From IMG/VR virus record IMGVR_UViG_2684622670_000009, positions 1 to 64,000 of that record: a stretch of 64,000 bases of DNA; one strand, written 5' to 3'. Each line of letters starts with the position of its first letter. Position 1 is the stretch's first letter. The DNA comes from a virus. Taxonomy: Duplodnaviria > Heunggongvirae > Uroviricota > Caudoviricetes. Made by a program: the position numbers. Below, piece by piece: positions 13,201-16,200 of the stretch.

Positions 13201-16200
13201 TGTTTTGGATAATTCTTTCTTTTCTAGAGAAATTATTTCTCCCATAGGAATAGACTGGTTATTAATACCATTGATATATTGTGGGGTAACTTTCGATACT
13301 GTCATTTCACCTTCGTCACCTGATTTTAACTTGTATTTTATTAGGTCTCCAGAATATATCTGTGGCTCGGTTAAATAATAAGTACTTCTTTCAAGATTTT
13401 TTTGCTTTATGTTAACTCCTTGATAAGAATGACATCCACATAACACAAGTGACAAAATTAACGTTGTCAGTAATTTTCTTTTGTTTTTTATCATTGCCAG
13501 TACTCCTTCTCTTTTTTTTATAGCTAAAACACATCATTCATTCCTGTCAAATAGTTTTGAGTTTGAGAGTGAGGGTTACGTGACGACGTTCTAAAAGTTG
13601 ACAGATAGCGGCAAAGACAATTTCATTTACAATATGTTACCTTTTCCTGTAAGTATACCTTGAGATAATTTTCTTTCCCCCATTAGTTGAGTGGCATGAA
13701 TGATATTAATAAATGACATTAGTTGTGATGATTTCTGATTCACATTTATCTCTCCAGCCATTGCCCTGATGTAATCGGCACTTGCCACGTTGTTATATTC
13801 TGTTGCGAAGCAGCATAACAACGTCAGAACATGCTCTGTCGTTATTTCGCTCCAGTTGATGTTGAAAAACTCATCACCTTTTTTGTCGTGTTCGGAATCG
13901 AAGATGCTTTGGTGGAGGATGTATTTGCCGGATTCCTTGCGCGGTAACTTGATCGCTTTCTGGCGTTCCAGCTCCTTGTAAATCTGCATTGCTTCAATCA
14001 GTACCGGCCTGCCGTTCATGAAGGGATCGCGCAATCTTACACGCTGGCCAACTCGACCAGTAATAAAGCTGTTTTCCTCTTCCACCAGCACGATAAAACC
14101 CTTTTCCTCTTTTTCTCTCAATTCGCGCAGCAGCTGGAGTTCCATGTCGCGGCGGCGTTCAGGGTAGCTGGTCCGCTCAGCCATTATCAGCTCGTTGTTG
14201 ATCCATGCAGCAGTCATTGACGCCGGTTTGCCGACGTTCATCGAAACAACGCATATTTTCTTATCCATAGCGCCCCTACAAAAAAGAAAAGCCACCAGCG
14301 GGGCTTAGCAATACAACTGAAGGTAGCGCCCGGTACTCAGACTGTGCCGTCCATGGAATATTTGAAAAGGGATCCATCCGTACCGGGCGTGTGATGATTC
14401 TGACTCAGGTCACTTGTCAGTTGTCAATCATTTAAGATTAAAAATAATATATTTATTAGTGCATGATGTTTGCCATTTCATAGGCGTCAGCCAGCAACTC
14501 CATCTCTGACTTGTTCAACAAGGTGAATTCTTTCTTTCCTCCAACCACACCATCGGCATGAACAGGGACCAGCCAGGGGTATTTTGCTCTTACTTCAGCC
14601 GGTGCTGCATGCTGGTGGTGCCATCTACAAAGTGGCAATTGCTTTTTATGACAACCCGGCGCGGTACGACCGGAGATATGGTGCAGAGACACCTCTTCAG
14701 ATATTACTCCATGCATATAGCAAGCAATGCAGGGGAGGGCGCCAAGAGTATTGGCGATACGGCGGTCGATAGTATCTCGCATTTTCTGATATTGAGATTC
14801 TCGCCAGACCGGATCAGCCAACTTCTCCCGTTGCCGAGCGATCGCTCGTTCTCTGGCTGCCTTCTGCCACTTACGGTGCTGTTCAATTTTTTGTTCGATT
14901 GTTTTCATATGGTCAAAAAAAAGGCGGCCTAATGGCCGCCTATGATGTCAAGGAGTGAAGTAATGGCAACGTCTTCGTAGTTGACTAACGCCACGGCTTA
15001 ATTATAGAAATAAATTAGAGCAATGTCAGCCGTTTTATTTATCGCGAATCACATTTTTTCTCTTCAGTACCTGTGTGCTATACTCCTTCTTGATTGATTG
15101 GATGCGGAATACAAACCTGCTCTTTTGTGCAGCCTGGCTCCTTGCCAGGCTTTTTTTTATTTCATCATGGAAGCTGTTAATGCTTTGGACCTTGCTGAAC
15201 TGATTGAGAGGGCTTTGTCAACGTGCCCAAAAAATTCGCCAAACTCAGACATCACTTTGGCAAAACCGCGCCGCGCTTCTTCCTCGGTGGCATTCATCAC
15301 GAAATGTTCAGCACTACGCATACTTTTGACAGGGAACGCAACAGATATTGAGTCAATATCAGGCATTCTATCGCTCAACTTTACAGTGACAATGACGGCT
15401 GGCGACTGAATATTAGTGCTTACAGACAGCACTACATATTTTCCGTCGATGTTGAAATCCTTTCTCATATGCCACCATAAATACCAAGCAATTAGAGCAA
15501 TTTCCTATACATTGACGGCTAATCACCATCTTCCAGCAGGCGCACCATTGCCCCCGTTTCACTATCCAGATTACGGATATAGTTCATGACAATATTTACG
15601 TTTGTCCAGCCACCAGCCTGCATGATCTCAGGTATTGAAACTCCGGCGCGGGCCATATCTCGTGCGGCTCCAACACGGGCACTGTGTCCAGACCAGGCTA
15701 GGTATCTCTGACCAGAGTCATCTTTTGCCCCGTAAATCAATCGGTGAGTTGCTTCAAAAATCCCTTCCAGGGCGCGAGTTGATAGCTGGCTGGTGGATGA
15801 TGGCGCGGCAACACCATTTTTTCTGACCCGGCAAAACAGGTAGTTATTCGGATCATCAGCGACACCAGAGACAGAAATCCATCGCTCGACCAGTTTAGTT
15901 ACCCCCAGGCTAAGTGCCTTCTCTACACCTGCGGTGCTAACCAGCGTTTTCGTTCTGCCAATATGGATTAACATTCTCCCACCGTCAGTACGCGAGATAT
16001 CTTTAACCCTGATCCTGGCAATTTCGGCTATACGTAACAGAGTGTTATAAGCAATCCCCAGAAATGCCAGATTACGTATATCCTGGCAGCGATCGCTATT
16101 TTCCATGAGTGAGCGAACCTGGTCGAAATCAGTGCGTTCGAACGCCAGCGCCTGTTTTGCACGTTCACCGGCATCAACGTTTTCTTTTCGGATCCGCCGC

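Follow-up and report, generated by a model that had tools for sequence, protein, structure and literature searches.

The DNA analysed here is positions 1 to 64,000 of IMG/VR virus record IMGVR_UViG_2684622670_000009 (Caudoviricetes), and we refer to this whole 64,000-nucleotide (nt) stretch as the window. It is a P1-like phage-plasmid, with 94-97% identity to P1, P7, phi456, SJ46 and RCS47 (megablast of 14000-18000 and 30800-33000). The window runs opposite to P1 coordinates, and the gene-sense strand of the region of interest is the minus strand, on which the genes follow one another in the order cra, cre, c8 and ref, continuing with pmgR/pmgS, pap, the C1 operator Op88 and an open reading frame (ORF) of 28 amino acids (aa); past this ORF, P1 carries pmgT whereas the window carries a type I hsd locus on the other strand. 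Our subject is a short word, the 11-mer TGATTGATTGG, that recurs in the leaders and intergenic regions of these genes, and that we find to be a conserved, strand-specific element typically placed just 5' of a Shine-Dalgarno (SD) sequence.

The 11-mer occurs exactly three times in the window (0.09 occurrences are expected for the word), and all three copies read CCAATCAATCA on the minus strand, that is, on the gene strand (Table 1). A preliminary description of this DNA had listed the same three copies; all are present, the second at 16790-16800 and not at 16791-16801. The description had also placed an SD-like sequence directly after each copy, and a purine run does follow within 1-3 nt in every case (AAGGAG at 15083-15088 for copy 1, and GAGGTG and AGGAG for copies 2 and 3, respectively). 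Two of the copies precede small ORFs, as had been noted, with copy 2 ending 10 nt ahead of the cra ATG and copy 3 ending 14 nt ahead of the ATG of the 28-aa ORF. Copy 1 had been assigned to the ref leader; because it lies upstream of the ref promoter and its operator Oref (between the c8 stop at 15157 and the promoter, 62 nt upstream of the -35 hexamer), it is not part of that leader. No start codon follows its SD-like run, and the run is not kept in relatives (GAATGAG in Cronobacter phage JK004). A fourth sense-strand copy, within pmgS, was absent from the preliminary description. The weaker copy reported at about 11029 is present at 11028-11038, but it lies in non-phage cargo, antisense to the local genes, and its membership in the motif set is doubtful. 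Overall, one-mismatch copies occur on the sense strand at 11028 and 33767 and on the other strand at 23031 and 42721; the copy at 42721 probably reflects chance. P1 carries the same three exact copies (at 186, 1885 and about 84370) and no more.

We evaluated conservation in 160 IMG/VR loci of close P1 relatives (80 for the cre region and 80 for the region of copy 3). Both cre-region copies are kept in 77 of 80 loci and copy 3 in 74 of 80, and over the two sets only 3 of 44 motif columns vary, as compared with 76 of 240 columns in the 30-nt flanks. Copy 2 has no variant in 80 P1-like loci, and the pmgS copy has none in 73. More informative is phage JK004 (Cre 79% identical), whose six copies, five of them exact 11-mers and the sixth CCAATCAATCG, all lie on the sense strand; four of the six are at positions homologous to those of the window, with flanks that are essentially unrelated. 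The homologous sites are the cre-operon leader (in which the copy is now followed by a different first gene, g62), the region after the c8 terminator, the small-peptide leader after pap, and position +20 of pmgS, where an exact CCAATCAATCA stands in the place of window copy 4. Of the two new copies, one belongs to a second leader with the order operator, hairpin, motif and SD, ahead of a 52-aa membrane protein, and the other abuts the ATG of an SD-less ref. JK004-like contigs from IMG/VR and from assemblies of Salmonella and other Enterobacteriaceae (L171-174 and L192-196) repeat this pattern, and in several of them (L172 and L192-194) there is an additional 68-aa gene, accompanied by a second motif copy of its own. 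At the position of copy 1, JK004 and all of these contigs read CCAATCAATC(G).

Other relatives retain the element too, in part in altered form. A Pantoea element (L175/L200; Cre 64%) has GCAATCAATC ahead of an SD and ACAATCAATC after c8, which is the copy 1 position. The copy 3 position is kept in JK004 and in L208, carries the short form CCAATCA in L207 and L210, and has a three-unit form in L209. Among the loci with a Pap homologue, pmgS and the peptide leader both carry the short form in L207, whereas in L210 the peptide leader has the short form and pmgS the long one. In locus L209 (Pap 60%), ACAATCAATCAATCA, or (CAAT)3CA, precedes the SD of another gene and is itself preceded by an operator-like word and a hairpin; the pmgS +20 site of this locus has GCAATCAATCA in another reading frame. 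The pmgS copy thus encodes Q-S-I in P1 and JK004 but N-Q-S in L209, and its retention at +20/+21 in different frames indicates selection on the nucleotides. The forms seen in a Klebsiella-type lineage are CCAATCATTC, CCAATC (one unit lost) and CCAACCAATC-ATG, with no motif before g62. The distant relative D6 (Cre 41%) has no motif copy, and it is also without cra and c8. The element is real, conserved and lineage-specific; its form is C(C)AATC(AATC)n with n = 1-3, G-free and on the sense strand, and the 11-mer appears to be the two-unit form common in the P1/P7/JK004 clade of phage-plasmids. The earlier proposal of a shared conserved element is borne out to this extent: the motif is exact and strand-specific while its flanks diverge, it lies directly 5' of an SD in at least six independent leader classes of P1-like genomes, and it is kept at these positions in the relatives, with one Klebsiella-type lineage showing shortened or decayed forms.

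Recurrence within the window would not by itself carry this conclusion. In the window, 74 canonical 11-mers have at least three copies, as compared with a mean of 18.5 in dinucleotide shuffles; because some 18 such words are expected in any shuffled window, three copies of some 11-mer are ordinary once all words are considered, and the significance of the motif comes from its context and from its conservation in relatives. The 10-mer has six copies in the window and six in JK004, where all six are on the sense strand and 0.18 are expected. When words are ranked by their repeat count in the non-coding DNA of the window and JK004, the 10-mer is second only to C1 operator words, and D6 has no equivalent repeated 10-mer. 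The P1 C1 operators (ATTGCTCTAATAAATTT) resemble the motif in this respect, being the sole 10-mers repeated more often in non-coding DNA, and some motif copies lie 45-70 nt downstream of one; they differ from it in that the sequences are unrelated and the motif is strand-specific, is not tied to promoters and is present in leaders without an operator. The window statistics alone do not exclude that the recurrence arose by chance and has no biological meaning, but the cross-genome data refute this: the sense-strand copies of JK004, the homologous positions despite diverged flanks and the presence of the motif in further lineages leave chance a negligible probability.

The link to C1 operators suggested by the preliminary description is only partly right. 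It is correct for copy 3, which shares its leader with Op88; copy 1 lies upstream of Oref, and copy 2 is far from any operator, the nearest operator words being about 245-330 nt away, past lox and the promoter P3cre, downstream of which copy 2 lies. Across the motif sites an operator in the same leader is not a constant feature: it is present at copy 3, at JK004 sites 70417 and 64806 and in L209, and absent at copies 1 and 2 and at the pmgS, ref and g62 copies. A second conserved block, GAGTATA(G/T)CACA, follows the post-c8 copy in the window (15072-15085, minus strand), JK004, L171-175 and L189. The block persists when a unit of the motif has been lost, and is a possible promoter element.

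The surroundings of the motif follow a recurrent plan, in which a promoter (sometimes C1-controlled) is followed by a 5' stem-loop, the motif, an SD and an AUG. The motif usually lies 3-30 nt after the GC-rich stem-loop and 1-8 nt before the SD, and the distance from its end to the AUG, with the SD in between, is 10-17 nt for cra, the peptide, g104 and g62 of JK004, the 68-aa gene of L172 and a gene of L175; in JK004-type genomes the motif directly abuts the AUG of the SD-less ref. The stem-loops are kept as structures and not as sequences: the JK004 equivalent of the long stem-loop at 16812-16870 has a changed sequence (-29.6 kcal/mol for the upstream 90 nt), and the peptide-leader hairpin is kept in P1, JK004 and L207-L210 with a different sequence in each. 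The annotated or predicted promoters P3cre and P(Op88) would start transcription at or just ahead of the stem-loops, with the predicted Op88 transcript beginning at about the 5' edge of the stem-loop at 31884-31908; the mRNAs are therefore predicted to begin with a 5' hairpin, and the motif would make up nearly the whole of the single-stranded linker between hairpin and SD. Rfam covariance models gave no match at the gathering score at the three exact sites, with weak, terminator-driven matches only. The plan is like that of an ompA-type 5' untranslated region (UTR), with its promoter-proximal hairpin, single-stranded segment and ribosome-binding site; the ompA single-stranded segment is where Hfq, the small RNA (sRNA) and RNase E act. 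Unlike in ompA, the single-stranded segment here is a fixed sequence that is reused in several leaders of one phage lineage.

Table 1. Positions of the motif copies and of the features around them in the window
Feature	Position	Strand	Remarks
Motif copy 1 (CCAATCAATCA)	15091-15101	-	c8-ref intergenic region, upstream of ref promoter and operator
Motif copy 2	16790-16800	-	cra-cre operon leader; 1 nt before GAGGTG (16783-16788)
Motif copy 3	31871-31881	-	Leader downstream of Op88; 1 nt before AGGAG (31865-31869)
Motif copy 4 (CCAATCAATCG), one mismatch	33767-33777	-	Within pmgS codons 7-10; +21 from ATG (33795-33797)
One-mismatch copy (CCAATCAATCC)	11028-11038	-	Intergenic in non-phage cargo, antisense to + strand neighbours
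One-mismatch copy (CCAATCAATCC)	42721-42731	+	Within dbn-like gene, antisense; in P1, not in JK004
Stem-loop after c8 stop	15131-15151	-	29 nt upstream of copy 1; T-run terminator on + strand
Long stem-loop (gcgctacgt...acgtagcgc)	16812-16870	-	11 nt upstream of copy 2, downstream of P3cre
GC-rich stem-loop	31884-31908	-	2 nt upstream of copy 3; reads as terminator on + strand
C1 operator Oref	15008-15024	-	ATTGCTCTAATTTATTT; overlaps ref promoter; 67 nt downstream of copy 1
C1 operator Op88/OpmgT	31941-31957	-	ATTGCTCTAATAAATCT; 60 nt upstream of copy 3
ref promoter -35 (CTGACA)	15024-15029	-	
ref	14456-14908	-	
c8	15157-15468	-	
cre	15519-16550	-	
cra, 73 aa	16558-16779	-	First gene after copy 2; ATG 16777-16779
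28-aa hydrophobic peptide ORF	31770-31856	-	After copy 3; MNTAFKIIMAAIYFWLFSITFGSIVAHG
pap	31957-32463	-	

The reading that we favour, at a little less than an even chance, is that the motif belongs to the mRNA leader, where it would be single-stranded and, by way of a specific partner, control the initiation of translation or the fate of the mRNA. The motif would be the single-stranded stretch of a short 5' UTR (promoter, promoter-proximal stem-loop, motif, 1-8 nt, SD and AUG) and, at the 5' edge of the region bound by the ribosome, would offer a sequence-specific site for docking or recognition within the mRNA. In this way it would set translation initiation, and thereby the stability of the message, in a small number of accessory or early operons. 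The putative targets in the window are cra-cre, the membrane peptide after Op88 and pmgS, joined in relatives by ref and others, and new gene cassettes in relatives come with their own motif copy. That the element exists, is conserved, is biased to one strand and has the anatomy described is shown by the sequences; it is the RNA level of action, the direction of any effect and the existence of a partner that we infer here. A specific trans-acting factor is favoured over a generic unstructured enhancer because the sequence stays exact while the flanks turn over, and one lineage, in which most of the sites examined carry a shortened or altered form, suggests that recognition was relaxed, altered or lost there, as would not be expected of a generic enhancer. 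Exactness against diverged flanks, the coding copy in two reading frames and the tight placement at ribosome-binding regions together point to nucleotide-level selection on a transcript element. Of the readings considered, the putative shared post-transcriptional element of the preliminary description is the most plausible.

Several findings weigh against this interpretation. Two conserved classes of site, the post-c8 copy and the pmgS +20 copy, are not adjacent to a ribosome-binding site; the next AUG after the post-c8 copy is about 45 nt or more away, and P1 and the window have no ORF behind this copy. The number of units varies from one to three, and ref has no motif ahead of it in P1, the window and L192, such that the exact length cannot be essential and some genes manage without the motif. 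Both cra and c8 co-occur with the motif yet persist in the lineage in which the motifs have decayed. The neighbouring genes are nearly all in one orientation, and strand bias alone therefore cannot separate a role in RNA from one in DNA. The predicted unpaired probability, which is higher for the motif (0.67) than for its flanks (0.48-0.52), speaks for a single-stranded element, but the difference is modest and is expected of any G-free tract. Finally, no partner was found among the rRNA, tRNA, sRNA, antisense and protein candidates that we examined.

A more specific proposal, which we hold to be possible but doubtful, is that a dedicated regulator (a phage RNA-binding protein or a host sRNA such as OmrA) recognises CCAAUC(AAUC)n, which would define a small post-transcriptional regulon. 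A close parallel is with the targets of T4 RegA, in which several unrelated phage genes likewise share a short sequence within or beside their ribosome-binding regions; a common sequence at several ribosome-binding sites, as with the RegA targets, would imply one trans-acting regulator. The motif differs from these targets in that its sequence is unrelated and it lies 5' of the SD, whereas RegA sites overlap the AUG. P1 is not known to encode a RegA-like protein, and we made no search aimed at one.

Three further explanations dispense with a specific RNA-level partner. Under one of them, which we judge unlikely, the motif would work independently of any factor, as a generic enhancer or standby site whose G-free, unstructured CA/U-rich tract insulates the SD from the stem-loop and offers a landing pad for the 30S subunit (protein S1). 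Its position directly 5' of the SD, its predicted single-strandedness, its presence at starts with no SD or a weak one (JK004-type ref and the 68-aa gene of L172) and the tolerance of one to three repeat units are all consistent with this, and CA-rich leaders such as tobacco mosaic virus omega enhance translation in Escherichia coli. Composition, however, does not require an exact 10-mer to be held across lineages while flanks turn over; there is no complementarity of at least 7 nt to 16S rRNA, and the conserved copies at pmgS +20 and after c8 go unexplained. Those copies away from ribosome-binding sites are better accommodated by a DNA-level or transcription-coupled site, that is, the site of a DNA-binding protein or an ops-like non-template-strand signal that recruits an elongation factor. 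The ops elements of the RfaH regulon are similarly invariant, oriented elements of 8-12 nt in several operon leaders, on chromosomes and mobile elements alike, and the distribution of the motif over leaders, early coding and intergenic regions resembles theirs; genes downstream of ops may be SD-less, and the SD-less genes directly after the motif recall RfaH-dependent operons. The motif (CCAATCAATC) is nevertheless unlike the ops consensus (GGCGGTAG) or boxA, and its close tie to the SD is unexpected for a DNA site. It has neither palindromy nor a fixed promoter spacing, tolerates a 4-nt change in its spacing to the neighbouring conserved block, and no RfaH/NusG paralogue was detected by tblastn with E. 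coli RfaH and NusG in the window, P1 and JK004 (nothing below E = 0.2), a search of low sensitivity for remote homologues; we consider a site of this kind rather improbable. Breakpoints in gene content, lastly, do coincide with copies of the motif (motif-cra in P1, motif-g62-cra in JK004, and motif-68-aa gene-motif-g62 in L172; a 2.5-kb block in JK004 lies between the post-c8 and pre-ref copies), and the changes in unit number resemble slippage or microhomology events, as would be the case if the motif were a recombination linker or cassette junction that promotes, or is a scar of, module exchange among co-infecting relatives and has no regulatory role. Against this, 10 nt is short for homologous exchange, other breakpoints (for example, the hsd insertion at about 31766) lie away from the motif, and its exact retention at four homologous sites with diverged flanks, together with the coding copy in two frames, argues for direct purifying selection; this explanation is decidedly improbable.

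Of the candidate partners, the one with the most extensive complementarity is the host Hfq-dependent sRNA OmrA, and were the motif its target then cra-cre, the peptide operon, pmgS and, in relatives, ref would come under EnvZ-OmpR/OmrA control. The segment CCAAUCAAU would pair with OmrA nt 10-18 (AUUGAUUGG): OmrA of MG1655 reads CCCAGAGGUAUUGAUUGGUGAG and forms nine perfect Watson-Crick pairs with motif positions 1-9, extending to 11 base pairs at the P1 cra copy (cACCAAUCAAU), and the pairing energy is -10.4 kcal/mol for OmrA as compared with -6.2 kcal/mol for OmrB, the segment including the OmrA-specific U16. No comparable complement was found in 16S, 23S and 5S rRNA, the three rrnH tRNAs, C4, isrK or elsewhere in the phage genomes. 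Targets of GcvB (C/A-rich) and of OmrA/B similarly share a C/A-rich single-stranded tract just 5' of the SD across several mRNAs; sRNA seed-match sites differ from the motif in that they are rarely identical 10-mers. OmrA and OmrB pair near the SD or start codon, or in early codons (PMC2588501, PMC12692685), and the motif is placed accordingly, either 1-8 nt ahead of the SD or, in pmgS, at +20. The validated targets of OmrA, however, pair with nt 1-10, or with nt 26-36 in the case of btuB (PMC2588501, PMC11162775), and not with nt 10-18. Moreover, the conserved core of the motif (positions 2-10) and the segment complementary to OmrA (positions 1-9) are shifted against each other by one nucleotide: the unpaired position 10 (C opposite U9) is invariant, whereas L175 and L209 have G or A at position 1, the partner of G18. 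The short forms keep just 6-7 nt of the motif, which is shortened or decayed in the Klebsiella-type lineage, and OmrA is conserved in Klebsiella; D6 also infects E. coli yet is without the motif. Moreover, 9-nt matches to some part of a known sRNA are not unusual; by our estimate the probability is about 2.5% for about 100 seeds of 30 nt, and higher because the search was post hoc. Taken together these points make OmrA a very unlikely partner.

Other candidates were tried and rejected. An rRNA-complementary enhancer (epsilon or upstream box) would require complementarity that is absent, there being no Watson-Crick run of at least 7 nt between the motif and 16S, 23S or 5S rRNA; the three rrnH tRNAs were also negative. 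The motif is unlike the targets of P1 C4 antisense RNA (a2 is TTGACAG and b2 is GTTAGTGA), the C4-like RNA of the window contains no complement to it, and the isrK and STnc100 RNAs of the window are unrelated to it. For a phage-encoded trans-antisense RNA, the pattern GRTTGRTTGG finds the complement of the motif itself and one site in dbn, and nothing else; a further sequence, TGATTGATTGC, lies at the lpa stop codon with a hairpin, and neither of the two extra sites is kept in JK004. Cis-antisense sRNAs from the plus-strand terminators beside copies 1 and 3 show no promoter-like sites and are not conserved. The consensus sequences of IHF, FNR and other proteins and the RNase P 'hairpin-N-CCA' arrangement misfit in spacing and consensus (compared by eye), and an upstream ORF encoding P-I-N-Q has frames and stops that are not kept in JK004. 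Cra was uninformative as a partner, its AlphaFold2 model having a moderate predicted local distance difference test score (73.5) and no fold match in the PDB, and Cra persists where the motif decays.

Some of these candidates have further features. The sequence TGATTGATTGC (23031-23041, minus strand), which can pair with 10 nt of the motif, overlaps the lpa stop, and a GC hairpin and a short U run come after it; P1 has this sequence as well, and because JK004 does not, it is probably a coincidence. Rfam matches above the gathering score identify a C4 antisense RNA at 19968-20055 (76.7 bits) and isrK at 20100-20178 (62.4 bits), both on the minus strand, with C1-operator-like words nearby at about 20257-20270, and the region looks like an immI-type antisense immunity module. 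The STnc100 sRNA match (50.3 bits, just above the gathering score) is at 46058-46173 on the minus strand, between tRNA genes at 45239-45311 and 46964-47036 (minus strand).

P1 is among the best-studied phages, and the cre region is a universal genetic tool. A full-text literature search for the motif returned no phage paper that contains the sequence; the P1 genome paper lay outside this search, and a prior mention is not fully excluded. Were the more specific proposal of a dedicated regulator true, Cre, Ref, PmgS and small membrane peptides would be coupled to one signal, and the widely used region upstream of cre would carry an overlooked control element. A regulatory role would define a new co-regulated gene set in P1-like phage-plasmids, which are common carriers of resistance and defence genes in Enterobacteriaceae, as well as a compact, portable leader module (hairpin, motif and SD). 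If the motif is a cassette junction alone, it would nonetheless illustrate clearly how a linker can be conserved where mosaic segments meet.

The genes next to the motif copies have some features of their own. The cra family is found solely in P1-like elements. The 28-aa ORF has a good SD and lies downstream of Op88; in P1 (AF234172) it is between Op88 and pmgT, without annotation, and its homologue in JK004 has 53 aa with a similar N-terminal transmembrane segment. The product is possibly a small membrane protein or a type I toxin-like peptide. With respect to a type I toxin-antitoxin arrangement at copy 3, the peptide and a plus-strand terminator (31884-31918) are present; no plus-strand promoter-like site was seen there, and the A-run is absent in JK004. 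In the window pmgS consists of two overlapping minus-strand ORFs (33054-33797, 247 aa, and 32536-33108, 190 aa), as opposed to one 420-aa gene in P1; the split (32536-33797) is a frameshift, either a pseudogene or a sequencing error. The ref start (14906-14941 in the window, minus strand; 2040-2079 in P1) has no SD and comes after a GC hairpin, T8 and a further 5-6 nt; P1 and JK004-type phages share this arrangement, which resembles a terminator or attenuator placed directly against the start codon. Ref has 150 aa in the window versus 186 aa in P1. A few kilobases downstream of ref, JK004- and Klebsiella-type relatives (L189-L196) carry genes for a Tad2-like/Sequestin (anti-Thoeris-type) protein and for HigB/HTH_3.

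Two observations concern the remainder of the window. In the hsd locus, an hsdS-like ORF (27154-28452, plus strand) contains three copies of the 12-nt unit GAGCTTACAGCA at 27691-27726, encoding (TAEL)x3, and is followed by hsdR (28574-31690); in EcoR124-type type IC specificity subunits the repeat copy number sets the spacer length. The cargo around the copy at 11028 (9400-12150, plus strand) has no match in the phage collection, and encodes a fimbrial-like protein (9407-9958), a DsbA-like thioredoxin-fold protein (10202-10837) and a 315-aa secreted-looking protein (11185-12132).

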